NCBI GenBank assembly: GCA_002070275.1
Contig: MWCY01000002.1
Location: forward strand, 11,820-75,819
Source: Candidatus Hydrogenedentes bacterium ADurb.Bin170
Lineage (GTDB): Bacteria > Hydrogenedentota > Hydrogenedentia > Hydrogenedentales > CAITNO01
DNA: 64,000 nt
Direction of reading: 5' to 3'
In this document: positions 9,574 to 42,440 of the stretch, piece after piece
Layout of the letters: every line of letters begins with the position of its first letter
Numbering within the stretch: position 1 is the stretch's first letter
Translations under genes and position numbers: made by a program
The notes under the pieces: model-generated
Database searches by the model: none
Seen by the model: the letters and a program-made list of their open reading frames with translations, nothing else
Told to the model about the DNA's origin: nothing

Positions 9574-12216
9574 GTGTCCGTTCAGGGACTTCCGGAAGTC
9601 ATGTCTACTGCTTCCACAGGATGCTTCATGTTTTTCACTTCTTTGTTTCTACTTTTCGGGAACAGCCTCATGTTTGCCACTACTCAGGATCTCATGTTCA
9701 GTCCCGCTTTTTACGAAACAGGTACTGGATGCATCTGGACACGTCCGCATTCCGAACTTCTTTCCATGGATGAATGGTTCCTCGCCGGACCTGCTCCCGG
9801 AATATACCGTGACGAATGGCTGGAAGCCGCTGCGGACTACCGCGACCAGGTCAGCCAGGGCGGCAAACGATTTTTACTGCTGGACACTGCCCGCGGAGTC
9901 GCCCGTGTACAGCCTTCTTCAGCACTGACCCGGCTGCTGAAACTCCAGCCGGGGGACGAACTTTTTTACTCTTTCCGTGCACGGAGCGGAAAAGAATCTG
10001 TATTTTCTCTAACCCTGGAAGAAATCACCCACGAGCAGGGGTCGCCGGACAACTGGCAGAAGACATTGCAGACACTGCACCTTCCCGGAGACGGGGAATG
10101 GCATGAGCTTTCCTGGTCTGTAAACATCCCTGAAGACGTTCCGGAAACCTGTATCGCAGCCCCTGTCCTGACTCTGATGCCCGGCTCTGACATGTCCGCT
10201 TCCGCGGAAATCGCCGGCATTCTCTTCGGCATCGGTGACACGGAGCGGATGTCCCTGCTGGGGAATCACTTGCGTTTCATGAACAGCACCCATATGTGCC
10301 GGTGCATTTACAACCGTGACGATCTGGAATGGGCAGGCAGTGCCTTTTCCGGTTATTTTCTTTTCGCCTATGACCGCCGGTTCTACACCCCGGAAGAGGG
10401 ATACAAAACCCAGGCACTGATTGAGGATTTTCAGGAACGGCTGGGCGGGGTGGATACTGTAGTCTTCTGGCCTTCTTATCCGCAGCTGGGTGTGGATGAC
10501 CGCAGTCAGTTTGATTTCTTCGACGATATGCCCGGCGGTTTGACGGGGCTGCGGGAGCAGTTCCGTCTGATGCAGGAAAAGGGCATCCGCATTCTCCTGC
10601 CTTTCCTGCCCTGGGACACGGGCACCCGTCGCGAAAATGATGAAGCGGAAAAGCAGCTGATCGCACTCGTTGCGGCTCTGGAAGCGGACGGAATCTTCAT
10701 GGACAGCCTGTCCGGTGCAGAAGACCGGCTCCGGATGGCGACCGACTCGGAAAAACTGGGCGTGGTTTTTGTTCCCGGCGCATGCCCCCCTGTGGAGCAG
10801 GTGAGTGTATGCAATCTGTCCTGGGCGCAAAATGCGGAGTATCCCATTCCTCCGGGAATCCCTTTGCTGAAATGGGTGGAACCACGGCACATGCAGCATT
10901 TCGTGCGCCCTTTCAGCCTGGATCGGCGTGAAGAAATCGAGCAGGCTTTTTTCAACGGATCCGGTCTGATGATCTGGGAAAATGTTTTCGGCTTTGCCAA
11001 TCCTCTGTCCGAAGAGGATGCCGCACTATGGAAACGCTGTGTATCCATTTTGCGAAGCATGCATAAGCCTTTCACATCCTCCCTTTGGGATCCTTTTTTC
11101 CCGTCCCTTCAGGAAGACCTCTATATTCACCGCTGGCCGGGTGCGCCGGGCACTGTCTTCACGCTGATCAATAAAGGGGAGCCTCTGGAATATGTGCCTC
11201 TTATCCGATGGAAACTTCCTGAATCTCTGCGTGCCGATCAGATGGTCGTCTATGATCTGTGGAATGGCGGTACTCTCCGCTGGGATATGAACGAATTCGG
11301 TGCCGTTCAGGTATGGGGCGACGTGGAGCGTCTGGGCTGTATCGCCATCAGTTTTTCGCCTGACGAAAATCTTGAAAATCTGGCGGCACAGCGGAAAAAA
11401 GAACAGCTTCCGGAGGCATCATCCCGCCATCAATACCTCGCACTTCCGCAGCGTCTCGCAGCGCCGGCAGCGAATGCATCTTCAAACACGGGCGGAACAG
11501 ACGGAATGCGGTTTATCTCCGGTGGCGGCATTACGCTGGCAGCGGCAAATCCGGGCAATCCGGCAGATGAGCGTCTGCTTCCTTTACAGAAACAGGCAGA
11601 GGCAGAAACGCATCAGGTCAATCCTTTTTATATGGACGAAGCACAGGTCAGCAACGGAGCGTTCCAAGTGTTTCTTCAGGAAACGGGATATCATCCTGAA
11701 AATGATCAGAATTTCCTGAAACATTGGGGCGGCCGTTCCATGCCGGATGCGCTGGCGGATCTTCCTGTCGTCTATGTTTCCCTCGAAGATGCCCGGGCAT
11801 ATGCAGCCTGGGCGGGCAAACGCCTTCCGACGGAAGAAGAATGGCAGGCAGCCGCTCAGGGAGAGGACGGACGCTGCTGGCCGTGGGGCAACGATTTCAG
11901 CAGTCAGCACTGCGCTCCGGCGGGTACAGCACCTGCATCGGTTCGCAGTTGTGCGTCAGGCAGAAGCCCTTACGGCATGTACCATATGACCGGCAATGTG
12001 CGCGAATGGACGGAAAGCGAATACAGCGACGGAATCACCCGTTTCTGTATACTCCGGGGCGGCTCCTGCTATGAGGCAAAAGGCAGCCGGCGTTATGTTC
12101 CGGGCGGACCGCAGCCGGTAACAGCCCGCACAAAATATCTGCTGATGCATCCCGGCCTCGACCGGTCGTCGCTGATCGGGTTCCGCTGTGCGAAAGATGC
12201 GGTCAGCGCCGGCTGA
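9574..12216 (+). CDS. Large two-domain protein: glycoside-hydrolase-like TIM-barrel region plus C-terminal FGE-sulfatase (SUMF1-like) domain
   Basis: Hydrophobic N-terminus. Middle region with GH-like blocks (VVFWPSYPQLGVDDRSQFDFFDD...GIRILLPFLPWDTG...ADGIFMDS). C-terminal approximately 280 aa with the FGE/SUMF1 pattern (PVVYVSLEDARAYAAWAGKRLPTEEEW...GNVREWTES...RGGS...GFRCAKD). Confidence 0.6.
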   Translation: MSVQGLPEVMSTASTGCFMFFTSLFLLFGNSLMFATTQDLMFSPAFYETGTGCIWTRPHSELLSMDEWFLAGPAPGIYRDEWLEAAADYRDQVSQGGKRFLLLDTARGVARVQPSSALTRLLKLQPGDELFYSFRARSGKESVFSLTLEEITHEQGSPDNWQKTLQTLHLPGDGEWHELSWSVNIPEDVPETCIAAPVLTLMPGSDMSASAEIAGILFGIGDTERMSLLGNHLRFMNSTHMCRCIYNRDDLEWAGSAFSGYFLFAYDRRFYTPEEGYKTQALIEDFQERLGGVDTVVFWPSYPQLGVDDRSQFDFFDDMPGGLTGLREQFRLMQEKGIRILLPFLPWDTGTRRENDEAEKQLIALVAALEADGIFMDSLSGAEDRLRMATDSEKLGVVFVPGACPPVEQVSVCNLSWAQNAEYPIPPGIPLLKWVEPRHMQHFVRPFSLDRREEIEQAFFNGSGLMIWENVFGFANPLSEEDAALWKRCVSILRSMHKPFTSSLWDPFFPSLQEDLYIHRWPGAPGTVFTLINKGEPLEYVPLIRWKLPESLRADQMVVYDLWNGGTLRWDMNEFGAVQVWGDVERLGCIAISFSPDENLENLAAQRKKEQLPEASSRHQYLALPQRLAAPAANASSNTGGTDGMRFISGGGITLAAANPGNPADERLLPLQKQAEAETHQVNPFYMDEAQVSNGAFQVFLQETGYHPENDQNFLKHWGGRSMPDALADLPVVYVSLEDARAYAAWAGKRLPTEEEWQAAAQGEDGRCWPWGNDFSSQHCAPAGTAPASVRSCASGRSPYGMYHMTGNVREWTESEYSDGITRFCILRGGSCYEAKGSRRYVPGGPQPVTARTKYLLMHPGLDRSSLIGFRCAKDAVSAG

Positions 12217-12306
12217 AGAAGGAAAATTTTCCGAGCGCAACGCTCTCCGACGGCTTGTAATTTTTACAATTTGACTGCTACACTCTTCAACAATGGAGGA
12301 CACACC

Positions 12307-13284
12307 GTGAACGTGCAGAAAGCTGTAATTACCGCCGCCGGTCGTGGAGTCCGGCTGTTTCCCGTAGCAGATACCGTGCAGAAAGGCATGCTGCCGCTGC
12401 AGGACAGAGACGGTCTGGTCAAACCTGTGATTCAGATCATCATCGAGGAAGCGCTGGAAAGCGGCATAGAAGAACTGTGTATTGTCTGTGCTCCAGGGGA
12501 CGAAAGCCGCTATAGGCAACAAATGCAGCAGATCCGCGACAATCTCCTGGAAGGCTACTCAGGGGAGCAGTGGGCGCAGCAGCAGGCGGCAAGGCTGGAA
12601 GTTATCCTGAACAAACTGTCTTTTGCCGTTCAGGAAGAGGCGCTGGGCTACGGTCATGCGGTTTACTGCGCCAAAGACTTTGCAGGGGATGCTCCTTTTC
12701 TGCTGCTGCTCGGCGATCACCTTTATGTCTCTCATCTTGAAGGGAAACGCTGTGCTCAGCAGCTGCTGGCGCTGGCTGCACAGGAACAATGTGCCGTTGC
12801 GGCAGTTAACCCCACGAGAGAACATCTCGTCGGCAATTACGGTACAGTCAGCGGTAAGCGCGTCCCTGCCATGCCCGGCGTGTACACCCTTGAAAAGATC
12901 ATCGAAAAACCCTCAGTCAGCCTGGCGGAATCAGTTCTGCAAACCCCCGGTCTCCGGGCAGGTCATTATCTGTGCTTTTTCGGGATGCATGTACTCACAC
13001 CGGGGATTTTCCCCCTTATTGAAGAAGAAATGGCGCAGTCGAAACGCAGCAACAGCAGCTGCCAGCTGACTCCGGCTCTTCAGGCGCTGGCATTGCGGGA
13101 GAAGTATCTGGCTACAGAGGTTCAGGGAAGTCGCTATGATATCGGCGCCCGCTACGGACTGCTTCTGGCTCAAATGGCGCTGGGACTCGCCGGACAGGAT
13201 CGGGACGTCATGCTCTCCGATGTTGTGTCTCTTCTGGCGGAATGTCGCTGCAACAGCAGCCCTTCGATGGAAAGACAGGTATGA
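12307..13284 (+). CDS. Sugar-1-phosphate nucleotidyltransferase (GalU/UTP-glucose-1-phosphate uridylyltransferase-like)
   Basis: KAVITAAGRGVRLFPVADTVQKGMLPL matches the GalU-type (A)VIPAAGLGTRFLP..K.MLP motif. Probable GTG start at 12307 with GGAGGA SD 7 nt upstream. The longer ATG ORF begins at 12271. Confidence 0.65.
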   Translation: MNVQKAVITAAGRGVRLFPVADTVQKGMLPLQDRDGLVKPVIQIIIEEALESGIEELCIVCAPGDESRYRQQMQQIRDNLLEGYSGEQWAQQQAARLEVILNKLSFAVQEEALGYGHAVYCAKDFAGDAPFLLLLGDHLYVSHLEGKRCAQQLLALAAQEQCAVAAVNPTREHLVGNYGTVSGKRVPAMPGVYTLEKIIEKPSVSLAESVLQTPGLRAGHYLCFFGMHVLTPGIFPLIEEEMAQSKRSNSSCQLTPALQALALREKYLATEVQGSRYDIGARYGLLLAQMALGLAGQDRDVMLSDVVSLLAECRCNSSPSMERQV

Positions 13285-16200
13285 ACGCTTTTATCGAGAC
13301 CATCACCAGCCGTGACGAAGTTCTGCGCAACCGCCCCTTTCGCACCCTGTGCGCCGGCAGAAATTCTGCTGAACTTCTGGCGGCGGCACGGGAACTGGAA
13401 GCCTTCCGGCAGTCTTCAGAAAATCTTTACGAGCGGGTGCGGGCATCTCTTTTTCTCTACGCCCTTCACCGTTTTTACCTGAGTGAATCGGCAGACTTCC
13501 CCGCTTCGGGCACACTCCCGCCTTCCGGTTTCTATGATCTCATGGAGCGACGTTTTGAAGAAGCACTTGCCTGCTTCTGGAAAGAGGTGAATGAGCAGGG
13601 CGCTACAGGAGCACTTTGCAGTGCGCTGGCGGAAAGCTATCACCATCTCTCTTTTGACACGCTGAGCGATCAGGTGCGGCGCAGCGTGCGCTCGAGCCGT
13701 GGCAATCAGTGGATGTTCCGGGTCGGTCACCCTGCAGAACATCCCCTCCGCTGTCGCCCTGAGCTGCAGCGCCGAGCCTCAGGAGAAAGCCTCTACCCTG
13801 TCCTTGTTGAGCGGACACCAGTCCGGCTGGATCTAAGCCACAGCGGATGGTCCGACATTTTCTTTCTCGGCATGGACTACCCTGAAGGGGCACGCGTGCT
13901 CAATATCAGCGTGGATCTGGGCGTATACGGTCGCGACAGCAGCACCCGCCCTCCGGTACAGGCCTATGTCCGGGTCATCACCGAACCGGTTCTTCGCATC
14001 ACCAGTCTTGATCTGGGAACAAGCAAAGACATCCGGGATCTGGGTGATCTCTTCAATTTCGGTAATGACTATCTGAGCCTTTTAAAAGCCGGGATCATCG
14101 CCTCCGGCTTTATCCCGCCTTCTTTTGAAGGCACGGACATACCTCTGGCCGGGATTCTGGGTGAGGTTATCCGCCCCGGCATGGGAATGGAACTTGTCAC
14201 TCAGGTGAACGATATCCCCAAAGGATCCCGCCTCGCTGTTTCCACAAACCTGCTCGCCTGTGTCATTGCGCTGCTCATGCGCGCCACCGGCCAAACACAG
14301 TCCCTCACAGGTTCACTTACAGAAGAGGAACGGCGCCTTGCCGCATCCCGAGCCATTCTGGGCGAATGGCTGGGCGCTTCAGGCGGAGGCTGGCAGGATT
14401 CAGGCGGCATATGGCCGGGCATCAAAGTGATCCGCGGCGCCCTTGCGGGAGAATCCGATCCTGAACACGGTATAAGCAAGGGGCGGCTCCTGCCTGAGCA
14501 TCAGATTCTGGGCGATCAGGATCTGCATCCGGACATTACCGAACGGCTGGCGGCATCGCTCGTGTTAATTCACGGCGGCATGGCGCAGAACGTAGGACCC
14601 ATTCTTGAAATGGTTACCGAAAAATATCTGCTCCGCTCCCAGCCCGAATGGGACGCCCGCCTGCGGATGGACAAGATTTTCAACGGCATCCGCAGTGCCC
14701 TGAAAACAGGAGACATTAAAGCGCTGGGCGCCTGCACCACACAAAACTGGAATGATCCGCTCAAAACCATTATCCCCTGGGTCAGCAATCATTTCACGGA
14801 AAGCATCATCAGCCGCGCACGGGCGGCACTTGGGGACGATTTCTGGGGCTTTCTCATGCTGGGCGGCATGTCCGGCGGCGGTATGTGCATGATGGTGGCG
14901 CCTGAACGGCGGGAAGCCTTCCGTGACATTATTCTTGACATCATGCAGTCAACAAAAGAGGAGCTGGAAGAAGCCCTGCCCTTTGCCATGAATCCTGTCG
15001 TCTATGATTTTACGATCAACAATCAGGGAACACAGGCGGCGCTGCTGACCGGAGAAGAAGCACTGCTTCCCATGTCCTATCACATACTGCTCACCCCGGA
15101 TCTTGCCCGAAACTGCCCGGAGAATCTCCCGTTGCAGCGGCGGATAGAACTGGATTGCGCCATCGCCGCCTGCCCAGAACCGGATAAACGGGATCAATTG
15201 CTTCGAACACTTGTGGGCAGCCTGTTCCGTGTAGGAGATGCGCTGTCACGAAGCGAGAAGAACCAATGGGACGAAGAAGCGGAAGCGATCAAGGCACAGA
15301 ACGGCTTTGACAGCATTCAGCATGAAATGATCCGGGATGATCTGCGGGGGGGCCGCATCGGGCTTTCCCGGAACCGCCTGCCCGCCGATACGCTCATCGA
15401 AGATGTTCAGGATCAGGATATCCTATTTCTTAAAGCCGATGCCCGAAGCAGACAGTCGGGCGAAGAAGCGCTCAGAGCGGGCACCGTTGCTGTGCTGTCC
15501 CTGGCTGCCGGCGTAGGCAGCCGCTGGACAACAGGTGCTGGCGTAATCAAAGCAATCAACCCCTTTATTTTTATGGCAGGCAGGCATCGCAGCTTTCTGG
15601 AACTCCATCTGGCAAAAACACGGGAAAGCATGCAGCGGTACAGCTGCGTAATCCCTCATATAGTGTCCACCAGTTTTCTCACCCATGGGCCTGTCGTAAA
15701 GCATCTGGAGCAACAGAAACGCTATCAGCATCCAGGCCCCCTTTACCTGTCGCCGGGCAGATCCATCGGACAGCGTTTTGTGCCTATGGTGCGGGATCTT
15801 CTTTTTCTCTGGGAAGAAACGACTCAGGAAAGCCTGGATGAACAGAAACAGAAGGTGCGCGATGCCGTCCGGGCAGCACTGATCGACTGGGCGAAAGCCA
15901 AAGGGGAAGGAACGGACTATACGGACAACCTGCCTATCCAGCGGTTTAATCCGCCCGGCCACTGGTACGAGGTCCCCAATCTGCTGCTGAACGGCGTACT
16001 GGCGCAGTTGCTGCAGGATCAGCCTCAGATCAAAACCCTCCTGCTGCACAATATCGACACGCTCGGTGCCGATCTGGATGCAACTGCTCTGGGCATGCAT
16101 CTTCTGTCGGGCAATGCGCTCAGCTTTGAGGTTACACCCCGGCGTATTGCGGATCGGGGCGGCGGTCTTGCGCGGGTAAACGGAAGACTCAGGCTGCTGG

Positions 16201-16616
16201 AAGGGCTGGCACAGCCCCGGGAAGAAGATGAACTCCGGCTGCGCTTCTACAATACGATGACCACCTGGATCGATGTCGATGCGCTATTGCAGCAGTTCGG
16301 GCTGGTGCGCGAAGATTTATGCCGGTCACGGGATAAAGTCGCTCAGGCTGTACGCATGATGGCAAGGCGCATGCCCAGTTATGTCACGATTAAAGATGTG
16401 AAACGACGCTGGGGCCGCGGGCAGGAAGATGTTTACCCGGTTGCTCAGGTGGAAAAACTCTGGAGCGACATGAGCGCACTCCCCGACCTGTCCTGCGGTT
16501 ATATGGTTGTGCCCCGCTTCAGAGGCCAGCAGCTGAAAGATCTGAACCAGCTCGACGCCTGGGCAAATGACGGAAGCAAGGACTGGATCGCCCGCCTTTG
16601 CGGACTTCAGGGCTGA
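13281..16616 (+). CDS. Bifunctional fucokinase-type GHMP sugar kinase / UDPGP-family (UGPase-like) nucleotide-sugar pyrophosphorylase fusion (1112 aa)
   Basis: GGWSD-like fucokinase motif (LDLSHSGWSDIFF). GHMP motif-II-like PKGSRLAVSTNLLACVIAL. GHMP C-terminal-like region (..GGMSGGGMCMMV..). C-terminal domain with the UDPGP blocks (LSLAAGVGSRW..; LLHNIDTLGADLD, cf. NIDNLGA of UGPases). ATG 13281 overlaps the upstream stop (ATGA). Confidence 0.55.
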   Translation: MNAFIETITSRDEVLRNRPFRTLCAGRNSAELLAAARELEAFRQSSENLYERVRASLFLYALHRFYLSESADFPASGTLPPSGFYDLMERRFEEALACFWKEVNEQGATGALCSALAESYHHLSFDTLSDQVRRSVRSSRGNQWMFRVGHPAEHPLRCRPELQRRASGESLYPVLVERTPVRLDLSHSGWSDIFFLGMDYPEGARVLNISVDLGVYGRDSSTRPPVQAYVRVITEPVLRITSLDLGTSKDIRDLGDLFNFGNDYLSLLKAGIIASGFIPPSFEGTDIPLAGILGEVIRPGMGMELVTQVNDIPKGSRLAVSTNLLACVIALLMRATGQTQSLTGSLTEEERRLAASRAILGEWLGASGGGWQDSGGIWPGIKVIRGALAGESDPEHGISKGRLLPEHQILGDQDLHPDITERLAASLVLIHGGMAQNVGPILEMVTEKYLLRSQPEWDARLRMDKIFNGIRSALKTGDIKALGACTTQNWNDPLKTIIPWVSNHFTESIISRARAALGDDFWGFLMLGGMSGGGMCMMVAPERREAFRDIILDIMQSTKEELEEALPFAMNPVVYDFTINNQGTQAALLTGEEALLPMSYHILLTPDLARNCPENLPLQRRIELDCAIAACPEPDKRDQLLRTLVGSLFRVGDALSRSEKNQWDEEAEAIKAQNGFDSIQHEMIRDDLRGGRIGLSRNRLPADTLIEDVQDQDILFLKADARSRQSGEEALRAGTVAVLSLAAGVGSRWTTGAGVIKAINPFIFMAGRHRSFLELHLAKTRESMQRYSCVIPHIVSTSFLTHGPVVKHLEQQKRYQHPGPLYLSPGRSIGQRFVPMVRDLLFLWEETTQESLDEQKQKVRDAVRAALIDWAKAKGEGTDYTDNLPIQRFNPPGHWYEVPNLLLNGVLAQLLQDQPQIKTLLLHNIDTLGADLDATALGMHLLSGNALSFEVTPRRIADRGGGLARVNGRLRLLEGLAQPREEDELRLRFYNTMTTWIDVDALLQQFGLVREDLCRSRDKVAQAVRMMARRMPSYVTIKDVKRRWGRGQEDVYPVAQVEKLWSDMSALPDLSCGYMVVPRFRGQQLKDLNQLDAWANDGSKDWIARLCGLQG

Positions 16617-16699
16617 CTTTTCCGGTCACGCACCTTGCGGTTGTCCAGAATTTTTCCTACAAGGAGACGCTGAAAACTGAAACAGCTCCACCGGAGACT

Positions 16700-19177
16700 A
16701 TGCTACCTGCCTTTATGAATCCATCTTTCAAAGAAAAATACGCCCGAGTGCCCGCCTCGCCTCTGCTGTGGTTTTTTCTTCTCTGCGCCTTCCATTTTTC
16801 CTTTAATATATGGTGGCTCCATGCCGACCGCCACGCCATCAGCACAGACGAAGAAACTCATATGATTATGGCGCGGGACTACTACACCGCACTGTTTCTT
16901 CCGCCCGGCAATGAAAGTATCAGCGCCCGTTTTGAAGCACTGCGACATATCCGCGCTGATGTGGGCAATCCGGTACACCCGCCGCTGCTTCATCTTGCCG
17001 GTGCCTTTCTGGCAAAAATCCTGGGCTACGGAATAGACCGCATCGCTTTTGCCAACACCTTGGCATTTCTTCTGTCACTGGCAGGCTTTTATCTGCTGAT
17101 GGGCTCGTTTCTCTCGCAAAAAAACACGCTTTTTGCCGTCACTGTCTTCAGCATGACGCCCATGGTTTACATGGCATCCCGTTATTTCATGACAGACTTT
17201 CTTTCCATGGCGCTTGTGATCTGGGTGCTTTACACGCTGTGGAAATCAGACGGCTACGCCCGTATCGGCTGGACTGTGCTTTTCGGCATCTGCAACGGAC
17301 TCGCCCTGCTGACACGGACAACGGCAGTACTTTATTATGCGTTGCCCTGTTTTCTTGTCGGATGCTTCGGCGTGTACCGTATTTTTCAGGAAAGCTCCGG
17401 TTTCGCCAGTCGCTGGAAGGAGCTGATGAAAATGAGTGCCCGCATGGCACTGGCGGCAGGCATCACGCTGCTTCTTGCGGCACCCTGGTACATCATGCAC
17501 GGGGAACAGTTCTACCAGCACTGGATGAAGCCGCAGGCTGTCCACGAGGAAACGCCGCTATCTATCCTCCGGAAAACAGCACCGCCTCCGCAGCAGACAG
17601 CCGCTGCATCGAAAACAGAAGCGACGGCATCCGCAGCGGATGGTCAGAAAGAAAACAGCAGCCCGAAAGGGGAAACTGGAAAAGCCGGATGGCGCCTGCG
17701 TCTGCACAGACGTATCCCCTGGACACGCTACCCGGTTTTTGTCATCAACAACGCTGTTTTTTTGCCCATGTTTCTTTTAAGCCTAGCCGGCATGATCTGT
17801 GCCTGCTGCAGCGGTGCTTTCATAAAACGAAAAGAAATCTGGCTGCTCCTGAGCTGGCTGTGGGGTTCCTATGTTCTCCTCACACTGCTGCTCAGTTTTT
17901 CCACACCGCGTTACGCTTTGCAGGCACTGCCCGCCCTTGCGTTTTTTTCCGCCCTCCCCTTCTTCCTGATTCAGGGAGGCAAACTTCGGCGGACACTGCA
18001 GGGGGTATATCTGGCACTGCTTCTCTTTCAATTTGTCACCCTGTCTGTTCACGCCTTTTCGCCGCTTCCCGAACTCAAACTGCCCCTTCAGCCGGATCCG
18101 GAATTTCAGGCTGTCTATGATGATCCGGGTCTGTACATCTATAAATCCGTGCTCCATGCGTCAAGCGCCTACGGCCGCATGCAGGCACCTATGCAGGACA
18201 ATTTCAAAGACCGGATTTTTGAAGCCATGCTGCAGAACGAGCAGAAACAACCCTATTTCGGGGTGGAAGCTCCTTATGCCCGCCTCAACATGAGAGGCAT
18301 GCTCTTTGAGGAGCAGCATTACTGGCTTGACAGCTCCCGCCCCAATCCTTTCCGGCGTACCGACATTCCGGCTGATCTGGAACCCTATCGCAACTTCCGA
18401 CATTACGGCTGGGGAAGAGACATGGAGGAAATACAACCCATACTTCCCATGGTGGACTATGTTGTCTACACGACGGAAGATATCAGCGAGGCAAAGGAGC
18501 AGGAATGGCTTCACATTCTCGACAGCCACGACTTTGATCTCATTGAACGCTTTTTCGAAGCGCGTTTCGGACAGGTTGGCGCACGTTATTATGCAGTGGC
18601 GGCACGCCGGGAAATCCGTCCCCTGCCGGAAATTAAAACACAGGCAGACATTGCCGCTCTGCCTCTGGAAGCTCTGTACCGTTTCCGCCATTCGGGCAAG
18701 TGGCGGCTCCTTTCGCCCCCTCTTCAGAATATGCTGGAGCAGCGCATACAAGCACTCTTTGAAGCCCGTGGAAAAGGCGTTACTCTCAATGACACCGTCA
18801 CGTTTCTTGGGGCCACTGCATCCCGGGCATCTGAGGATCGCTACATCCTGAACCTGATGTTTAAATCAAATGATCCGCCTCCGCTCAGCTGCCGGCTGCT
18901 GCTGCAGGGCGTCGTGTCGCCTGAGGATATGGCAGTTCATTTTGGAACGCCGGGTGAAAAGTACGGTCAATTCCGGTGGTCTTTCGAACCCAGCCCGTCA
19001 CTTGTCTTCTGGCCCGAACAGGGGCATGTGCTGGTACGCTTCCCCTTTTCCGCCAGGCCCATACCTTACGAGCTGAGCCTTGCCTTTTTTCTGCCAGGAA
19101 AAGGACTGTGGGATCGGGCGGTCAATCTCGGATCAGTGGACTTCAGTAAAGTACCCGATGAAAATGCAACCCGGTAA
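16700..19177 (+). CDS. GT-C fold glycosyltransferase, ArnT/PMT-like (GT83/GT39-type) with large C-terminal extracytoplasmic domain
   Basis: Multi-TM N-terminal half with an acidic first-loop motif (HADRHAISTDEETHMIMARDYY) and ArnT/PMT-like helices. Approximately 380-aa soluble C-terminal region. No STT3 WWDYG motif seen. Start set at ATG 16700 (GGAG upstream). The long ORF from 16598 overlaps the upstream gene. Confidence 0.6.
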   Translation: MLPAFMNPSFKEKYARVPASPLLWFFLLCAFHFSFNIWWLHADRHAISTDEETHMIMARDYYTALFLPPGNESISARFEALRHIRADVGNPVHPPLLHLAGAFLAKILGYGIDRIAFANTLAFLLSLAGFYLLMGSFLSQKNTLFAVTVFSMTPMVYMASRYFMTDFLSMALVIWVLYTLWKSDGYARIGWTVLFGICNGLALLTRTTAVLYYALPCFLVGCFGVYRIFQESSGFASRWKELMKMSARMALAAGITLLLAAPWYIMHGEQFYQHWMKPQAVHEETPLSILRKTAPPPQQTAAASKTEATASAADGQKENSSPKGETGKAGWRLRLHRRIPWTRYPVFVINNAVFLPMFLLSLAGMICACCSGAFIKRKEIWLLLSWLWGSYVLLTLLLSFSTPRYALQALPALAFFSALPFFLIQGGKLRRTLQGVYLALLLFQFVTLSVHAFSPLPELKLPLQPDPEFQAVYDDPGLYIYKSVLHASSAYGRMQAPMQDNFKDRIFEAMLQNEQKQPYFGVEAPYARLNMRGMLFEEQHYWLDSSRPNPFRRTDIPADLEPYRNFRHYGWGRDMEEIQPILPMVDYVVYTTEDISEAKEQEWLHILDSHDFDLIERFFEARFGQVGARYYAVAARREIRPLPEIKTQADIAALPLEALYRFRHSGKWRLLSPPLQNMLEQRIQALFEARGKGVTLNDTVTFLGATASRASEDRYILNLMFKSNDPPPLSCRLLLQGVVSPEDMAVHFGTPGEKYGQFRWSFEPSPSLVFWPEQGHVLVRFPFSARPIPYELSLAFFLPGKGLWDRAVNLGSVDFSKVPDENATR

Positions 19178-19195
19178 TTGCGAAAGGCACCCTGC

Positions 19196-20698
19196 ATGAC
19201 AGTATCTGCCCGTCGACAGCCTGCCTCCGACAACGATCCGGATTTTCGCCGCCTTGTTCGCGGTGCATTTCTGTCAGCGATCAGCATTCTGATTTCCATG
19301 GCGGCTTTGCTGATTACAGGCAAACTGTTCACCAATGCCCTCGATCAGGAACAGGTGGGCATCTTCGCACTGCTGCTGGTCTGTTCGGATTTCATCATTT
19401 ATGCCGCCGGGCTGGGCTTTGCCGCATCCATGCCCAAACTGATAGCGGCAGCCGGACAGGAAGACCGGAAAAAGATCATTGCCTCCGCACTTGCCGGTCA
19501 ACTGATGCTGCTTTGTGCTGTCAGTGCAGCGGTGTTGCTCCTTCAGGCAGGAATCACGCATCCTGAACGCATATCCACGCATCGGGGGTGGCTGGCTGTT
19601 CACGGCGGGCTGCATCTGCTGCCGCTGCTGTTTGTGACAGGCTGCCTGCGCGATCTGATCCTCGCCATGCTTGCCGGACTCAACCGCTATGGCTGGAGAG
19701 CAGGAGGCATCACGCTGGCTTCCCTGACACAGGTGGCGGCTGTATGGGTATTCATATGGCAGGGAGGCGGCGGGCTCACAGCTCTGGTGATCGCACTGGC
19801 AGCCTCTTATGCATTGGCGCTGGCGCTTCTCTGGATCGGACTGGGATCTGCCGCCGTGCCCCGTTTCTCACAGCGCCATTACAGAGAAGCCGTCTTGTTC
19901 AGTGCTCCCTTGTATCTGAATCAGGTCATGAATTTCTTCCACCAGCGCTTCGATACGGTTCTTGTTTCTCTTCTGGCAGGCGTAGGCTATGGTGCTGTTT
20001 ATGAAATGCTGAAACGCATCCCTCTTATTGTAAACCGCACCCTGAATGCGCTGCTAGTGCCCTATCTCCCCCACATCTCCCGGCTGATTGCCCGGGAAGA
20101 CCGCACGCAGGCAGCAAAGGTACTCAATGAAGCGGCAGCGCTTTCCGCCTTCATCGGCTATGGTGCGGCACTTTTCTTTACTGCACTGCAGACAACGCTA
20201 ATCCCCTTTCTGTTTAATAAGGAATATCTTACCGGCAGCACAACACTCTTTCTGCTGCTGCTTGCCGCCAGTCTGGCACTTCAATCCGGCGTGATGGCGC
20301 AAATGCTTATCGCCCTGGGACGCAATCTTTCCGTTCCGATCGTAAACATGAGTACAATGGCACTCTGCCTTTTTCTGGATCTGCTGCTGATCCCCCGGTG
20401 GGGTCTGGCGGGAGCGGCGGGTGCTGCCGCTTTTTCTTCCGGCTGCAGTTATGCGCTGATGGTCTTTTGGGCACGGTACAATGGCATCCGCATCTCCCTG
20501 CGCAGCTGTGCACTGCCTCTGCTCTTGCTTTCCATCAGCGCTTTGTCGTTATATTATGAGATGCAGAACGCACTGTTCCGGCTGCTGCCGCCTGTACTTT
20601 TTACCGTGCTGTGTCTGATGACCGGTGTTACATCTCCCGGTCGCCTCCACGCCATTACAAAGGCACTGCTTCCGGGCAGCTTCTCTGCATCAGACTGA
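19196..20698 (+). CDS. Polysaccharide/oligosaccharide flippase, Wzx-like (MOP superfamily)
   Basis: Approximately 12-14 predicted TM helices, basic N-terminus, overall pattern of RfbX/Wzx polysaccharide biosynthesis proteins. The listed ORF start 19178 is a TTG. The first ATG is at 19196. Confidence 0.55.
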   Translation: MTVSARRQPASDNDPDFRRLVRGAFLSAISILISMAALLITGKLFTNALDQEQVGIFALLLVCSDFIIYAAGLGFAASMPKLIAAAGQEDRKKIIASALAGQLMLLCAVSAAVLLLQAGITHPERISTHRGWLAVHGGLHLLPLLFVTGCLRDLILAMLAGLNRYGWRAGGITLASLTQVAAVWVFIWQGGGGLTALVIALAASYALALALLWIGLGSAAVPRFSQRHYREAVLFSAPLYLNQVMNFFHQRFDTVLVSLLAGVGYGAVYEMLKRIPLIVNRTLNALLVPYLPHISRLIAREDRTQAAKVLNEAAALSAFIGYGAALFFTALQTTLIPFLFNKEYLTGSTTLFLLLLAASLALQSGVMAQMLIALGRNLSVPIVNMSTMALCLFLDLLLIPRWGLAGAAGAAAFSSGCSYALMVFWARYNGIRISLRSCALPLLLLSISALSLYYEMQNALFRLLPPVLFTVLCLMTGVTSPGRLHAITKALLPGSFSASD

Positions 20699-20737
20699 TA
20701 CCCTTTATCTACTGTCAGGAAAAGAGGAGTAGCCGGT

Positions 20738-21814
20738 ATGACACAATCACCCTGTCGCATCATTAACGCCACGGCACCCATCCGCATCTGTGATCTGGGC
20801 GGATGGACAGACACGTGGTTTTCAGGGCACGGAAGTATCCTGAACATAGGCGTCTATCCCTATGCGGAAGCCCAGCTCTTTGTCCGTCCCGGAGACCGGC
20901 CGGGCAAACGGGAAGTAATGATTCATGCCGAGAATTTCGGCGAGCGCTATGCCTTGCCCACGCCAATCGAATACGACAAGCATCCTCTTCTGGAGGCATG
21001 TCTGGATATCATGGAACTTCCCGACAACCTGGATTTTGAGGTCAATCTCTTTTCCATCGCTCCGCCGGGCTGTTCCACAGGCACTTCCGCCGCCATCAGC
21101 GTCGCTTTGCTGGGTGCGCTGGATCTGCTTACACCGGGACGCATGACACCGCATGAAATCGCTTTGCTTGCCCAGCGTGTGGAAACAGAAAAACTCGGAC
21201 TCCAGTGCGGTATACAGGATCAGCTCTGTTCCGCCTATGGCGGCATCTGCTACATTGACATGTACGAATACCCCAACGCCTCTGTATCCCAGTTGTGGGT
21301 ACCCAACCGGATCTGGTGGGAGCTGGAAAGGCGGCTGGTACTTGTTTATCTGGGCAGATCCCATTCGTCAAGTGAAGTGCACGGGAAAGTCATTGCAGGT
21401 TTTGAAGCGGCGAACTCCGATAAAAGCGCTCTGGAACCGCTTCGGCGTGCGGCAACAGCAGCAAAAGATGCGCTGTATCAGGGCGATTTTCTTGCATTCG
21501 GCAAGGCGATGAAGGACAACACGGAAGCACAGCGCAACCTGCATCCAGCTCTGATCTCGGCTGAAGCCGAAGCGGTTATCGATCTTGCCCGGAAGCATGG
21601 AGCACTGGGCTGGAAGATCAACGGTGCAGGCGGTCAGGGCGGCTCAGTCACTATTTTGTGCGGCCCGGAAAACACAGGCAAGCGGAATTTTATTAAAGAA
21701 CTTTCATCAATCAATCCTGCCTTTGAAGCACTTCCTATTTATCTGTCACGTTTCGGACTTCGCCAATGGAAAAGCCCCATGCAGGATCAGTCTTCTTTTT
21801 CAGGATCATCATGA
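20738..21814 (+). CDS. GHMP family sugar kinase (fucokinase/HddA-like)
   Basis: N-terminal ..APIRICDLGGWTDTWF.. (GGWSDTP-type motif of fucokinase/heptose kinase subfamily). GHMP motif II PPGCSTGTSAAISVALLGAL. AGAGGAG SD upstream. Confidence 0.65.
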   Translation: MTQSPCRIINATAPIRICDLGGWTDTWFSGHGSILNIGVYPYAEAQLFVRPGDRPGKREVMIHAENFGERYALPTPIEYDKHPLLEACLDIMELPDNLDFEVNLFSIAPPGCSTGTSAAISVALLGALDLLTPGRMTPHEIALLAQRVETEKLGLQCGIQDQLCSAYGGICYIDMYEYPNASVSQLWVPNRIWWELERRLVLVYLGRSHSSSEVHGKVIAGFEAANSDKSALEPLRRAATAAKDALYQGDFLAFGKAMKDNTEAQRNLHPALISAEAEAVIDLARKHGALGWKINGAGGQGGSVTILCGPENTGKRNFIKELSSINPAFEALPIYLSRFGLRQWKSPMQDQSSFSGSS

Positions 21815-22470
21815 TTCCCATACACTTTATTTCCATTGCAACGCCTGTTCCCTACGATGCCATGCTGCAGCGGCAGGAGCAGATGCGTGATTCCGTACAT
21901 GCAGGCGACGACGACGCATCCGTTTTTCTGCTGGAGCATGAGCCGGTAATTACCTTGGGCAGGCGTGCTCAGGCGGAACACGTCCGCGCCACCCCGGAAC
22001 AGCTTCACGCATTGGGAATTATCGTGCACAAGAGCGACCGTGGCGGCGACGTCACCTACCACGGTCCGGGTCAGCTGGTCGTGTACCCTGTTCTCGACCT
22101 GAAACGATGGCATCTTTCTGTTGACTGGTACCTGCGAAGTCTGGAAGAGGTGGTGATTCGATTTCTTTCCTGTTACGGATTGCAGGGCAGGCGCATTGAC
22201 GGACTCACGGGCATCTGGATCGGCGAGCAGAAAGTGGCTGCTATCGGCATCAGCATCCGTCACTGGATCTGCTGGCACGGGATTGCGCTGAATGTTGCGC
22301 CGAAGGAAGAGCACTGGCAAACCATAATTCCATGCGGTATACGGGATCGGGGTATTACCAGCCTTCGCGCCCACCTTGCACAGGTACCGCCCATGCAGGA
22401 AGTCAAAAACACCATGATCACCTGTTTTAAAGAAGTTTTTCCATGTGCGGCACGAATCAGTCAGGAATAA
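21811..22470 (+). CDS. lipB: Lipoyl(octanoyl) transferase
   Basis: LLEHEPVITLGRRA..HKSDRGGDVTYHGPGQLVVYPVLDL..GLTGIWIGEQKVAAIGI..PCGI conserved LipB blocks. ATG 21811 overlaps the upstream stop (ATGA). Confidence 0.85.
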   Translation: MIPIHFISIATPVPYDAMLQRQEQMRDSVHAGDDDASVFLLEHEPVITLGRRAQAEHVRATPEQLHALGIIVHKSDRGGDVTYHGPGQLVVYPVLDLKRWHLSVDWYLRSLEEVVIRFLSCYGLQGRRIDGLTGIWIGEQKVAAIGISIRHWICWHGIALNVAPKEEHWQTIIPCGIRDRGITSLRAHLAQVPPMQEVKNTMITCFKEVFPCAARISQE

Positions 22471-22471
22471 C

Positions 22472-23773
22472 ATGAAAATCGGACCCCGATTGAGAAGCAG
22501 TATCATTTTTCTGGCGGCAGCCCTCCTGCTGGGCATCGCTTTCAGAACCGGAAGCACACATCTGGCTTTCAGCATTTACGCTTTTCTCCTGCTTCTCGCA
22601 ACTTCCTGGATGAGCACTGCGCTGTGGTTTCCGGGGCTGACCAGCGAACGGACGATCGACCGGCTTATGGTTCAGCAGGGGGAAAACATTCAGGTCACTG
22701 TCAAAGTGCTGAACAAGCGGGGGCTGCCCGTGCCGTGGCTTTTCGTGGAAGACCCCTGTTCGCTGCCTTTTCCGGTACGAGGCGAATCAAAGCGGCTCTG
22801 CATGCTGATGCCGGGACAATCCGTGACCCTGAGCTACACGCTTACATGCACCAGACGCGGATACCACCGCATCGGTCCGACCGTTTTCGAGTCGGGCGAC
22901 CTGTTCGGGCTCCATAAACGCTTTCGTACGGCGTCCAAACGGGACTATGTCACTGTGCTCCCGACCATTGCCTATATTGACACCTATGCTGTTTCTTCCA
23001 GACGTCCTCAGGGGCCGGTCCGCATTACGAACCGGATTTATGACGATCCGTCGCGTATTAACAACCTGCGGGAATACCAGCCGGGCGATCCGCTCAGCAA
23101 AATCCACTGGAAGGCAACGGCTAAAACAGGCGAACTGATCGTGAAGACTTTTGAAGCGACCAGTGTCACCGGCGGTACACTGGTGCTGGATCTGCATGAA
23201 GACAGCTATCTGGAAGAAACGCGGGAATCCCGCATGGAACTGGCAATCACCACCACCGCTTCTATTGCCTACCTCCTTCAAATGTCGGGCGAACAGACTG
23301 GTCTGCTCACCAACGGGCGGGATGCGGCAGAAGTCGCTCTTTACGAGGGCAAGACACTGGATGCACGAAGCCGCTTCGAGCTGGAGGAACTCCGCCGCCT
23401 GGAGATGGACAGCACGCGCATCAGTCCGCTTACCGTACAGACGCAACGCAGTCCGAATCAGGCCATAAAAATCGCAGAAAATCTGGCGCGCATTCTTCCC
23501 GGACAGGCGCTCGATCTTCCCGCACTGCTGACAGCGCAATGCACCGGACTCCCCCGTGATGCCACGCTCCTTCCCGTGACAGGACAGATCACAGACCGTC
23601 TGGCATTGACTCTGGGCATGCTGAAGCAGGCGGGCTTTCAGATCGCCGTCTTTCTGATCGATGCCGGAACTGCCCGGGAGGAAGCGGAAAAATTACTGGC
23701 ACAGCATTCCATTTACATGTTTCATATCGCAAGCGAGCGGGATCTGCACAATATCTCTCTGTCGAAAATCTGA
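22472..23773 (+). CDS. DUF58 domain protein (two N-terminal TM helices)
   Basis: Two N-terminal TM helices followed by the DUF58 core (..NNLREYQPGDPLSKIHWKATAKTGELIVKTFE..). AGGAA SD. Start 2 nt after lipB stop. Confidence 0.6.
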   Translation: MKIGPRLRSSIIFLAAALLLGIAFRTGSTHLAFSIYAFLLLLATSWMSTALWFPGLTSERTIDRLMVQQGENIQVTVKVLNKRGLPVPWLFVEDPCSLPFPVRGESKRLCMLMPGQSVTLSYTLTCTRRGYHRIGPTVFESGDLFGLHKRFRTASKRDYVTVLPTIAYIDTYAVSSRRPQGPVRITNRIYDDPSRINNLREYQPGDPLSKIHWKATAKTGELIVKTFEATSVTGGTLVLDLHEDSYLEETRESRMELAITTTASIAYLLQMSGEQTGLLTNGRDAAEVALYEGKTLDARSRFELEELRRLEMDSTRISPLTVQTQRSPNQAIKIAENLARILPGQALDLPALLTAQCTGLPRDATLLPVTGQITDRLALTLGMLKQAGFQIAVFLIDAGTAREEAEKLLAQHSIYMFHIASERDLHNISLSKI

Positions 23774-23800: not shown

Positions 23801-26800
23801 CTATTGCAGGTGCGGCAGCACGACCTGACCTTCAGCCTGTGCCACCAGATCGTGATAGGCACCATAAAAAACGCTGTTCCCGTCTATCCACAGAGTAATA
23901 CGGCGCAGCTCTTCGGGTGAAAGTGCCACACCGTAATGCCCCGCTTCCAGGAGAGCCAGCAGAGGCGAAGCGTGGGCACCTACTTGACCCGGAATATTAT
24001 AGGATGTTTTATTGCGCTTCAGTCCGATCCCATTTCCACCGTGACGTACCCAGACGAAAGGCCGAAGCGACTCGAAGGCCTGAGACCATCCGTAGGCACC
24101 TCCCGCCTCCCTTCCGAATTTCGGCGCCTCTTTTTCCCGGGCATGGCAGTCAGCACAGTGCCTGTCCAGTACAGGCTGCACCAGACGGGAAAATTGGAGC
24201 GGCCAGGAACCGTCCGCTTCCGCTTTCAGTTTATCCGGTGCCCGTCGCAGGGCAAGAGGCAGCCGCTTGGGCACTGCCGGAGACTGTCGGACCGGCTCAT
24301 GGCAGCCGGCACAGGACAGATGTTCGCCCGGATGCAGATAGGTTGCGGAACTCATGGTCTGCACTGCCATACCCCGTTCATCCAGTGCCTGAAAATAGAA
24401 AGGTACCCCCGCCGGTGCCATGAAATGAGCGCTTCCGTCTTCCTCTACAGGCACGGTACCCAGCACGCCCCGCGCCACCGATTCATCACCGGCACCGATA
24501 TTCGGTTTTTCCGGAGCCGGCGTTGATTTCGGAAACATCTGTATGAGGCGGAGCTCTTTAATTCTGGTGTTTTCCGGCCACTCCCGGCGGGTCTCGTATA
24601 TATTCATCACTGAAATCACACCTGTCGGCGGCTCAGCCTGCGCAACTGTTTCATAATGTGTCTGCACGGGAATAATCGGCGGCCTCGGCCGTGCACGGAA
24701 AGGAATGGGAGTGGAACAGCCTATGCTGTCATCCCGGTACAGAATTTCCCGGTTGCCGAAGGAGTCGACAAGATATAAATCATGCTTGCTCTGGTCAGGA
24801 TCATACACAGCGAGATAAAAGTCTTCGCTCAGAGGCCAGGGCGTCCCGTACACCTGCCCGTCACCGCCGCCGCCCTGAGGACTTCGGGGTACCCCCGGCG
24901 CCGACTCCGCTTCCGGAAATTTAGCTTCCGGCGTTACACGTCTGATCTGTCCTGTGGATTGATCATCTTCAAGGTGAAGATCAATAGTAATGATGGAGCC
25001 GAAGAACTGGCCGTGATGCGTGGCGGCAGTTGCAGCGTATTTGTGCGAGCCGGGAATGGCACGAAGAGACATTTCCATCCACGGACGTGATTCCCGGACA
25101 GCCGGGTAATTGCCGTGGGGGCCGCGCGGGTCTCTGCCGTCCGGATAGACAAGCCACAGATGATGGGCAATGTCGCTGTCCCGATCCACGTAATCCCAGC
25201 GGGTATACACGACCATGCCGTTATTATCCACACTGGGCAGCCATTCATGGGTCTCGTGATAGCTGAAGGGCAGAATTTCTTTCAGGGCACTGTCCATCTG
25301 AAAAAGCGTATAGGTGGGGCACACGCGTCCGCAGCGCAGAAATCCGCCTCTCCGCTCAGAAGTAAACACAATGCGGCCGTCGGGAAGCCAGCAGGGATGC
25401 ATGTCATTCCAGGGCCCGTCAGTCAGCTGGGTCAGCCCTGTGCCGTCCGCATTCACACTGAATAAATGATAGGCCCTGCCTGGATCCCAGGGCTCTTTCC
25501 AGTAATTTGCCTGATCTTCTCTGTGGTACTTGTGGCGCTTGTCGCCGCGGCATTCCACATAGGCAAAAAGAATCCGGGTGCCGTCAAAAGAAAGATCCGG
25601 AGATAGGAAGGCACCGCCTCCCGCATCGGCTCCCTCCGTCAGCAGCCCTTCACCGTCATAATAAAGATCCGGTGCCGCCGTGCCACCGTGCAGCTTTTCA
25701 CCTGCCAGCCTTCCCGATTCAACAACGGAATCGGCAAGCAGATCTTTTGTGACAGGAGCATCGGTAAACGCATTTTCCAGAACAAATAGTCCGCCGCCGG
25801 GCCGGGCGGCTATGCCGTAGAACTGATCGCACATATGCTCATAAATAGCACGGTGTCTTTTCAGAAACAGGATGCGATCAAAATTCAGCAGCGGATTGGA
25901 AAAAGCAATCTCCCGGCGCAGTGCACACAGACGGTGAAAACAGAGCCGCTCCTCCTGCAGCCCGACAGCCCCCTGCCCTTCTTCAATCTTCGCAACAAGG
26001 GGCGCCAATTCGGAAAGAGCAGCTTCCATGCCGCTGTAATCTCTGTCCGGATAGCGTGCGGACAAATAGTCAAGAAGTGCCCGGGTGCGCCGCCAGACAA
26101 TGCCTGTCGGAGAGCGGTCCGTGTCATGAATCAGCGAATCAGGACGCAGCGCTTCCCGGGCAAGCCGCTCATTATTCCATTCCGGACGGGCAGCAATCTG
26201 CCGCCTCAGTTCTCTGTATTCGGCATCCCGAACCGCACTGAGCGGAAGCGTCTCTCTCGCACCGGGAAATTCCGCAATGATCACGACATTATCATCAAAC
26301 TGCGGAATATAGATCCGGTTCTCGTGCCACGCCGTCCCGATATCAGCAGGCGATTGAAGCGTATGCAGTGTGCGGACACTCTTCCGGTCTGCTGTAATGA
26401 TACAAATTTTGTTGCCGACAAAATCCGAGACGATAAAGTCACCGGAAGGGGTGACTTCTATGCCGTCCAGGTTGGTGAAATGTTCGGCAAGGCCGAAAGG
26501 CACCGGAGCATTCTGTCCGGCAGGATCCACCTCATAGATTTCATGAAGTGTCCAGGAAACGGCGTACAGTTTTTCCCCGTGAACAGTAACACCATTCACG
26601 CCCTCAATTTCTCCCACAAGGGCATGATTGCCCGCCCCACTGATATCCACCCGCCAGATGTGCCCCTTTTCGACATCAGACACATAAACAGCACCATCGC
26701 CCGCAGCCATGTCGTTCAGCCTGCCCGCCCCTGCCGGTGCATAACTTTTTCTGAAGGATCCGTCGGCGAGAGAATAAGCAACAACACGACGGTTGTCTGC

Positions 26801-27130: not shown

Positions 27131-27280
27131 GGCCGACTCTCCTGAACTTGAATATTTCCGGATCTGAAAAATGAAACGATCCGGTATTTTGGTGCTCATA
27201 TCACTGCTGTGGTATTGTGTAGCTTCTTCCTTTTTTTACGCTGCCATTTTAACAGGAACCTCACGCTGAAAGGAAAAAGC

Positions 27281-29061: not shown

Positions 29062-29218
29062 AAAGCCGCCAATTGGCAAGTTTTTTTCTTCCTGTGTTTT
29101 CAGAATTCTGAAGCACTTGACGTGTCGTCCTGTTTGCAAACAATCTCCGGTGCGGATACAATGACTCCGGAATTTTTAGCGCCCGCCGCACACCGGAATC
29201 TACTTTTTGAGAGTGTTT

Positions 29219-34941: not shown

Positions 34942-34950
34942 AAGAAGCGC

Positions 34951-35770: not shown

Positions 35771-35816
35771 TCATATGAAGATGCCGGCTGGGCGGCAGCA
35801 GTCGGGAGACAAGCGC

Positions 35817-42437: not shown

Positions 42438-42440
42438 CGG

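Follow-up and report, generated by a model that had tools for sequence, protein, structure and literature searches.

We describe a string of seven genes at positions 12307-23773 (+ strand) of a 64,000-nucleotide window of contig MWCY01000002.1 from Candidatus Hydrogenedentes bacterium ADurb.Bin170; 'the window' denotes this whole stretch of DNA, and positions refer to it unless a homologous locus is named. The string, comprising g1 to g5, lipB and a DUF58 gene, is a nested mosaic of the pair g1+g2 (module A), the pair g3+g4 (module B) and the single gene g5 (module C), followed by two passengers. On balance, we consider it probable that the string is a lineage-specific juxtaposition of these independent modules and the passengers, with A and C suggested to supply B. 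An initial annotation of the same DNA had presented the string as a candidate for an undescribed surface glycosylation system of the Planctomycetes-Verrucomicrobia-Chlamydiae (PVC) lineage. This was overstated, since the organism belongs to Candidatus Hydrogenedentota, two of the genes are passengers and the modules are linked in one clade only, although an arrangement of g1 to g5 for supply plus transfer is plausible in that Hydrogenedens-level clade.

Organization of the gene string

The seven genes are consecutive and co-directional, as first annotated, according to the open reading frame (ORF) listing, a direct reading of the junctions and gene calls made independently on four public contigs of the same sequence (among them contig DAOSLW010000010.1 of GCA_035369305.1). 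The domain identities first assigned to them were reproduced with Pfam and NCBIfam in all seven cases, and by fold comparison as well for g2 and g3. g1 (12307-13284; 325 amino acids, aa) encodes a GalU-family nucleotidyltransferase, g2 (13281-16616; 1,111 aa) a GHMP-like/UDPGP fusion, g3 (16700-19177; 825 aa) a membrane glycosyltransferase of GT-C fold, g4 (19196-20698; 500 aa) a flippase of the MOP superfamily (Wzx type) and g5 (20738-21814; 358 aa) a GHMP sugar or sugar-phosphate kinase of the HddA/WcbL type; lipB (21811-22470), for an octanoyl/lipoyl transferase, and the gene of a 433-aa DUF58 protein (22472-23773) complete the string. The called start of g1 is a GTG codon at 12307 with a GGAGG Shine-Dalgarno sequence, and position 12271 is the TTG start of the longest ORF. 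From g1 to the DUF58 gene the spacings are, in order, -4, 83, 18, 39, -4 and 1 nucleotides (nt), with ATGA overlaps at two junctions only (g1/g2 and g5/lipB). The initial annotation, in which every junction was an overlap or a gap of 0-40 nt, was right about the compactness and missed the 83-nt gap between g2 and g3; its description of the string as operon-like in packing and non-canonical as a locus holds. GC content is even, at 0.54-0.57.

No terminator-like hairpin was found in any of the junctions by a hairpin scan, and a scan for consensus promoters and terminators returned no junction sites, with site counts close to the shuffled expectation. Searched for regulatory RNAs and riboswitches, the leaders and spacers matched no Rfam family, even with E values as high as 0.1 admitted. 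A putative promoter, TTGTAA-N18-TACACT (12255..12284, + strand), lies approximately 22 nt upstream of the g1 start, and the GGAGGA Shine-Dalgarno sequence of g1 (12295-12300, + strand) stands 3' of it. TTGTAA and CTGCTACACT are invariant 5' of g1 in the window and in three homologous loci, L086, L085 and L095, despite differing upstream genes, and a GGAGG ribosome-binding site precedes g1 in all four (L-numbers denote homologous loci compared with the window). The element was not reported by a generic sigma-70 scan. Because this promoter-like motif is kept 5' of g1, transcription would begin at g1, leaving the upstream FGE-sulfatase-domain gene outside the putative unit. That gene (9574-12216, + strand) lies 90 nt upstream of g1, a position conserved only in L086 (59% identity). 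Its product has 880 aa, of which approximately 600 at the N-terminus match no family, and ends in an FGE-sulfatase (formylglycine-generating-enzyme-like) domain. A defence function was also considered for the string and set aside, as PADLOC gave no model match for g1 to g7.

The g1+g2 cassette

The product of g2, a family of which we found no characterised member, has a helical N-domain (residues ~1-170), a GHMP fold (~175-560), a helical linker and a UDPGP fold (~700-1111); neither the N-terminal domain nor the linker has a Pfam family even at E = 5. Its GHMP domain is fucokinase- or heptokinase-like. Residues 187-559 match, in part, the fucokinase half of the NCBIfam FKP model, and against the FKP equivalog NF009948 the protein scores 85.2 bits, through the kinase part only, where the cut-off is 721. 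Compared by sequence with solved structures, g2 is closest to the fucokinase of FKP (1.6e-12) and to plant and fungal UGPases (~1e-9), and in fold comparison fucokinase is the best structural match, with WcbL, a heptose-7-phosphate kinase, among the nearest. Of the GHMP kinase features, g2 keeps the catalytic Asp (in GGGWQD), the Arg of motif I (PVRxD) and motif III. The C-terminal half is of the eukaryotic UDPGP type (PF01704), to judge from its Pfam gathering score, its UGPase/UAP fold, the G-loop LAAGVGSRWT and the NxDxLG motif, here NIDTLGA. Given that the catalytic Asp, motif I Arg, motif III and the UDPGP motifs are retained, the simplest reading is that one polypeptide would take a sugar through sugar-1-phosphate to UDP-sugar. 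Public records annotate g2 only as 'UTP--glucose-1-phosphate uridylyltransferase'.

With one genome scanned per species, at least 588 g2 loci were found, and synteny was assessed in the best 80 through tblastn of all window proteins, with phyla assigned by record titles. Within these 80 loci g2 is 54-70% identical over all 1,100 residues; the best 120 g2 homologues, the identical cluster aside, are 65-83% identical to it. In 74 of the 80, g1 shares the strand of g2 and stands directly upstream of it; of the six others, three are contig ends, so that the two genes are adjacent in 74 of 77 assessable loci. The identities of the two proteins co-vary across loci (r = 0.89). The carriers comprise Hydrogenedentota, Bacteroidota (Hymenobacter, Spirosoma, Larkinella, Pontibacter, Adhaeribacter, Mucilaginibacter, Chitinophagaceae and Saprospiraceae), Rhodothermaceae, Planctomycetota (Singulisphaera, Tautonia, Paludisphaera and Phycisphaerales), Verrucomicrobiota (Akkermansiaceae, Chthoniobacterales and a metagenome-assembled genome (MAG) labelled Lentisphaerae), Chloroflexota, Acidobacteriota and Armatimonadota. 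The pair thus spans at least seven phyla, and some of its carriers are in culture, namely strains of Hymenobacter, Adhaeribacter, Pontibacter, Larkinella and Singulisphaera. When the ORFs called in 81 distinct loci were clustered all against all, no recurrent third partner emerged, the families obtained being generic or spurious (antisense ORFs, histidine kinases, ABC ATPases, sulfatases and SusC-like proteins). By tblastn, g3, g4, g5, lipB and the DUF58 gene occur in none of the 80 loci, those of other Hydrogenedentota included.

Some of the loci merit comment in their own right. MAGs labelled Nitrospirales or Nitrospiraceae (L005-L007, L012 and L014) carry g1 and g2 at 65-70% identity, the same as Hydrogenedentota, and a MAG labelled Williamsia (Actinomycetota, L028) has the pair beside SusC-like genes; the taxonomic labels or the binning of these records look doubtful. 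A family of 1,160-1,290-aa proteins, which we take to resemble pyrophosphate (PPi)-dependent phosphoenolpyruvate carboxykinase, is encoded on the strand of g2, and downstream of it, in four Verrucomicrobiota loci (L050 12929-16789, L051 18390-22034, L059 5276-8887 and L079 13445-16930), directly after g2 in all but L051, where the distance is approximately 5 kb. The window itself encodes a 1,013-aa fusion of LPG_synthase_TM (MprF flippase-like) with a sulfatase/LtaS-type alkaline-phosphatase domain (29207-32248, + strand), and a 41%-identical orthologue (L097 5930-9016) lies directly upstream of g1 and g2 with an 18-nt gap. As a candidate partner of the pair this fusion was rejected as incidental, for it adjoins g1 in one Hydrogenedentes genome and at no other locus.

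The g1 protein belongs to the nucleotidyltransferase superfamily, with 71 bits for Pfam NTP_transferase against a cut-off of 21.2, and falls below the curated cut-off of the galU equivalog TIGR01099 (142.4 against 326.8 bits). It resembles GalU, GalF and YngB in keeping the LLGD and EKP motifs and in aligning over its full length with its best solved-structure relatives, YngB and GalU (7e-31); it differs in its sub-threshold equivalog score, its altered G-loop and its near-constant g2 companion. The G-loop reads GRGVR...QK in the window, compared with GLGTR in GalU; other phyla show AARGER or GKSQR together with a deletion of 8 residues. The Arg is conserved, unlike the Thr. GalF is a non-catalytic paralogue of GalU, and the variation in the G-loop of g1 recalls it.

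Relatives of g2 also occur within giant proteins. Three single-ORF proteins embed a g2-like core: P0297 (2,939 aa; L094 8001-16820), in which it is fused to ROK; P0288 (2,318 aa), which combines ROK, the core and an inositol monophosphatase (IMPase)-family domain; and P0423 (3,096 aa). BLAST found no match to a g1-like segment in these fusions. The gene adjoining P0297 in L094 encodes a 7,976-aa protein with HAD and Glycoamylase domains, on a contig of bacterial type. These ROK and IMPase-family fusions, known from two metagenomic protein clusters, tie the g2 family to sugar-phosphate metabolism and leave room for a kinase/phosphatase logic like that of the heptose pathways. They are also the sole reason to mention the ROK-family sugar kinase gene of the window (5796-6761, - strand), 5.5 kb away on the upstream side of g1, which is not conserved near g1 and g2 in L086. 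A further homologue, P0306 (KAK2962578.1; 1,292 aa), has a PKGSRLAVSS loop and is annotated in the oxymonad Blattamonas nauphoetae, which suggests either lateral transfer into a metamonad or contamination.

The g3+g4 membrane module

The g3 protein is an ArnT/PMT-type GT-C enzyme by its Pfam PMT_2 match (PF13231; 39.9 bits against a cut-off of 26.1). A sequence search of solved structures gave no match; its AlphaFold2 model (predicted local distance difference test 84.9) has a predicted GT-C fold, for which Foldseek placed ArnT first (5f15/5ezm; 1.2e-07, TM score 0.60), followed by AglB, STT3, Pmt4, PglB and ALG9. The first periplasmic loop carries a D-E-E motif; D50, E51, E52 and H54 show almost no variation across 32 homologues, and the C-terminus forms a periplasmic region of approximately 350 aa with alpha/beta and beta-sandwich parts. 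No WWDYG motif was noticed on reading the sequence, a formal pattern search not having been made. Homologues were detectable in 32 clusters, every named one of which is from Hydrogenedentes. The g4 protein matches Pfam Polysacc_synt (56 bits against 28.2) and Polysacc_synt_3, and reaches 27.6 bits where the NCBIfam WZX_like subfamily demands 300. Because the flippase is of the large Wzx type, an undecaprenyl-diphosphate-linked glycan, with a transfer like that of oligosaccharyltransferases (OSTs) or ligases, is as plausible a donor as an undecaprenyl-phosphate (Und-P) monosaccharide.

Gene order around g3 is graded by relatedness. In the closest locus, L086 (64% identity for g3), the whole order FGE-g1-g2-g3-g4-g5-lipB-DUF58 is preserved; in L085 and L095 (~50%) the order is g1-g2-g3-g3'-g4-g5 and then a gene on the opposite strand; L096 has the same GT-C protein as L095, and lipB lies beyond the opposite-strand gene. 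L090 (48%) has the GT-C and Wzx genes only, lacking g1, g2 and g5, and in L087, L088 and L089 (33-43%) the GT-C gene stands alone or amid GT2 and radical-SAM genes, L088 being a paralogous GT-C locus that has GT2 genes. g4 follows the GT-C gene in L085, L086, L090, L095 and L096, at 56-69% identity by tblastn in the three loci compared (L085, L086 and L090). Contiguity of g1 to g5 is thus confined to the closest, Hydrogenedens-level clade (L085, L086 and L095; g3 identity 49-64%). Scattering of the ORFs in relatives, which the initial annotation had named as counting against its reading, was found in part: the seven-gene order recurs in L086 and g1 to g5 in L085 and L095, and elsewhere the modules are scattered.

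The tandem duplication of the GT-C gene between g2 and the Wzx gene occupies 7479-12583 in L085 and 6963-12251 in L095, both copies being ~50% identical to g3. Very large secreted proteins of Ig-like or beta-helix type are encoded immediately upstream of the g1 cluster in L085 (1-2786; 1,857 aa) and of the lone GT-C paralogue in L087 (3878-9532; 1,884 aa); they are possible acceptors, to be taken as a lead and not as evidence.

g5, lipB and the DUF58 gene

The g5 protein carries both Pfam GHMP_kinases_N and GHMP_kinases_C. Its best matches among solved structures are those of WcbL (4usk/4usm, 1e-24 to 1e-25), a likeness extended by a GIQDQ motif; it differs from HddA and WcbL in a score far below the cut-off of NCBIfam HddA (NF049969; 87.5 against 600 bits) and in a locus that lacks the partners GmhA, GmhB and HddC. 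The best 120 g5 homologues listed are 66-87% identical, and all named ones are from Hydrogenedentes. Elsewhere in the phylum g5 is placed in other polysaccharide loci, namely L091, with Wzy_C, Wzx-type, GT4 and sulfatase genes, and L093, where it lies near epimerases and a GT4.

LipB exceeds the cut-off of its equivalog TIGR00214 (160.9 against 83.55 bits), and its gene directly follows g5 only in the window and in L086, the place being taken by an opposite-strand gene in L085 and L095. The DUF58 protein matches Pfam DUF58 at 54.3 bits; of the relatives, only the nearest one, L086, has its gene co-located. Both genes are passengers, outside the unit of sugar activation and glycosylation. Converging on the DUF58 gene is a gene (23801-27199, - strand) for a protein of 1,132 aa that combines a signal peptide, an NHL/PD40 beta-propeller and HZS_alpha (hydrazine synthase alpha middle), which is found at the same position, 78% identical, in L086.

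Elsewhere in the window, a gene at 338-2902 (- strand) encodes a protein of 854 aa in which a GH3 glycoside hydrolase is joined to several LysM domains, and the division and cell wall (dcw) cluster at 34918-46496 (+ strand) has the canonical order mraZ, mraW, a small ORF, a PBP3-type transpeptidase gene, murE, murF, mraY, murD and ftsW.

A model for the string

The activities, sugar, acceptor and coupling of A to B that we propose are inferred from the observed gene order, folds, motifs and synteny patterns. Module A would be a self-contained cytoplasmic cassette, promoter-led and coupled by its overlap, that is ancient, widespread and not specific to this locus. Within it, the most likely role of the fucokinase-like domain of g2 is the anomeric phosphorylation of a sugar, after which the UGPase/UAP-like domain would turn the sugar-1-phosphate and UTP into a UDP-sugar; g1, as a divergent GalU paralogue, may be a second pyrophosphorylase or a GalF-like partner subunit of g2. 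Module B would act at the periplasmic side, where g4 may flip a polyprenyl-phosphate-linked glycan that g3, being similar to ArnT and OSTs, could pass to an acceptor in the envelope. Module C would provide a phylum-wide HddA/WcbL-like sugar or sugar-phosphate kinase for the synthesis of envelope polysaccharide, and the enzyme that loads the carrier would be encoded outside the locus. That the Hydrogenedens-level clade has the three modules side by side, and probably expresses them together, suggests A and C as suppliers of the activated sugar that B would consume.

Relation to described systems

g2 is most nearly comparable with FKP and with the salvage pairs of plants and protists in which a GHMP sugar-1-kinase works with a UDP-sugar pyrophosphorylase (USP). 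Compared with FKP, g2 has the reverse order, its kinase-like part being N-terminal to the pyrophosphorylase; its pyrophosphorylase is of the eukaryotic UDPGP type (PF01704) and not of the GFPP type; it has an additional helical N-domain of ~170 aa and a near-constant GalU-like partner gene; and its phosphate loop reads GSRLAVST instead of GSGLGTSS. In the USP systems of plants and kinetoplastids, kinase and pyrophosphorylase are separate proteins, whereas they are fused in g2. The zebrafish glucuronokinase/pyrophosphorylase GKUP is, like g2, a natural fusion of the two kinds of domain but differs in architecture, its kinase being preceded at the N-terminus by a short nucleotidyltransferase of bacterial type (PMC3938481). 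A survey of FKP evolution from 2025 makes no mention of the g2 architecture (PMC12732313).

Periplasmic glycosylation by three components involves a carrier-charging enzyme, a flippase and a GT-C enzyme, as in GtrA/GtrB/Gtr*, ArnC/ArnEF/ArnT and CsbB/GtcA/YfhO, and GT-C enzymes take lipid-linked donors (PMC11127046). g3+g4 resembles these systems, and OSTs such as PglB and AglB, in pairing a transferase of GT-C fold with a membrane flippase. It departs from them in that the polyprenyl-phosphate sugar synthase is not in the locus, that g4 is a 500-aa MOP/Wzx-type protein instead of a small GtrA/ArnEF-type one and that g3 has its large periplasmic C-terminus.

Alternative explanations

Several observations weigh against a coupled string with a conventional kinase in g2. 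Modules A and B are never linked outside one clade among the loci compared, and the g2-g3 spacer varies from 68 to 198 nt among relatives without conservation of sequence, so that A and B may have separate transcripts; read-through from g2 into g3 is possible. The initial annotation found no Und-P-sugar synthase (GT2) in the string, and indeed neither the cluster nor the 64-kb window has a GT2 or phosphoglycosyltransferase gene other than mraY, judged by Pfam scans, or precomputed annotation for three genes at 4278-7945, of all ORFs of at least 100 aa but one (121 aa). The G-loop of g1 is non-canonical and varies by phylum, its Lys-containing segment being absent in some lineages. GHMP motif II of g2 is PKGSR[LF]AVST in all 80 loci (PKGSRLAVST in the window), where kinases have PxGSGLGxSS, and PF00288 GHMP_kinases_N has no match to g2 even when the middle domain is scanned alone; with both departures, kinase activity is not assured. 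The count of two sugar-1-kinases in the initial annotation is uncertain for this reason. Finally, our literature search found no report of a GHMP and UDPGP fusion with the architecture of g2, no experimental data on any member and nothing of relevance to glycosylation in Hydrogenedentes.

A and B might instead be adjacent without being functionally coupled, g1+g2 being a housekeeping or catabolic nucleotide-sugar cassette that in one clade happens to precede an envelope module with which it has no relation. Such a cassette might be a Leloir-type bypass built on pyrophosphorylases, in which g2 would convert sugar to sugar-1-phosphate and UDP-sugar, epimerisation would occur elsewhere and g1 would return glucose-1-phosphate and UTP from UDP-glucose; one kinase-like domain with two pyrophosphorylases would fit a cycle of this kind, regenerating UTP and consuming PPi. 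The stand-alone pair with its variable neighbours in more than 70 loci of polysaccharide-degrading phyla, the conserved promoter-like motif at g1 and the long, variable g2-g3 spacer all agree with this explanation. However, g1 to g5 have stayed contiguous in three further contigs while the GT-C diverged to ~50%, which argues for selection on the arrangement, and 54-70% identity across phyla over 1,100 aa is high for a peripheral catabolic enzyme; we therefore regard it as unlikely, if the most serious competitor. At the opposite extreme, the initial annotation joined all seven genes into one integrated, translationally coupled surface glycosylation system, fed by salvage of an unusual sugar such as fucose or arabinose. 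The shared direction, tight packing and lack of terminator-like junction sites are what such a system would have, as is the identical order in L086. Nevertheless, the overlaps are confined to two junctions, g1+g2, g3+g4 and g5 each occur independently elsewhere, and lipB and the DUF58 gene, whose roles are unrelated housekeeping or unknown, are cut off from g5 in L085, L095 and L096, where a gene on the opposite strand intervenes. Nor does anything indicate which sugar is used, fucose or arabinose salvage having no specific evidence in its favour, and we judge the seven-gene system to be very improbable.

The unusual phosphate loop raises a narrower question, namely whether the GHMP-like domain of g2 is something other than a simple sugar-1-kinase, the Arg signifying different chemistry. 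It could phosphorylate the anomeric position of an already phosphorylated sugar, as HddA and WcbL do, in a pathway with a ROK kinase and an IMPase-type phosphatase, or it could be a regulatory ligand-binding domain that controls the UDPGP domain and g1. Distant relatives of g2 (28-43% identity, an Omnitrophota protein included) retain PxGSGLAVST, from which the Arg emerges as a derived, fixed change; this constancy over all 80 loci, the failure of GHMP_kinases_N to match, the presence of WcbL among the nearest structures and the giant fusions with ROK and IMPase-family domains are consistent with a changed role. Yet the catalytic Asp, motif I Arg and motif III are kept as in an active kinase, fucokinase, a simple sugar-1-kinase, is the best structural match, and the fusions amount to two metagenomic protein clusters; of the explanations weighed here we give this one the least credence. 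A broader proposal would make g1+g2 an undescribed, ancient nucleotide-sugar route of many phyla, with at least one eukaryotic homologue. It would include a non-canonical GHMP step by the domain with the invariant Arg (for example anomeric phosphorylation of a sugar phosphate, within a sequence of ROK kinase, g2 and IMPase-type phosphatase that would be analogous to the heptose pathway) and a hetero-complex of g2 with its obligatory GalU-like partner, and would have been recruited in Hydrogenedens-like bacteria to feed an ArnT/OST-like GT-C and Wzx pair glycosylating an envelope or giant surface-protein acceptor. We consider this proposal distinctly doubtful. The juxtaposition of independent modules, with A and C suggested to supply B, is the explanation that we prefer.

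Significance

As a surface glycosylation operon, this is an ordinary, lineage-specific envelope gene string of an uncultured phylum; the useful result is the g1+g2 cassette within it. A protein as strongly conserved as g2 for which no function is known points to a gap in our picture of nucleotide-sugar metabolism that is directly testable in cultivable organisms, and a natural kinase/uridylyltransferase in one polypeptide could serve the chemo-enzymatic synthesis of UDP-sugars, as FKP does for GDP-fucose.

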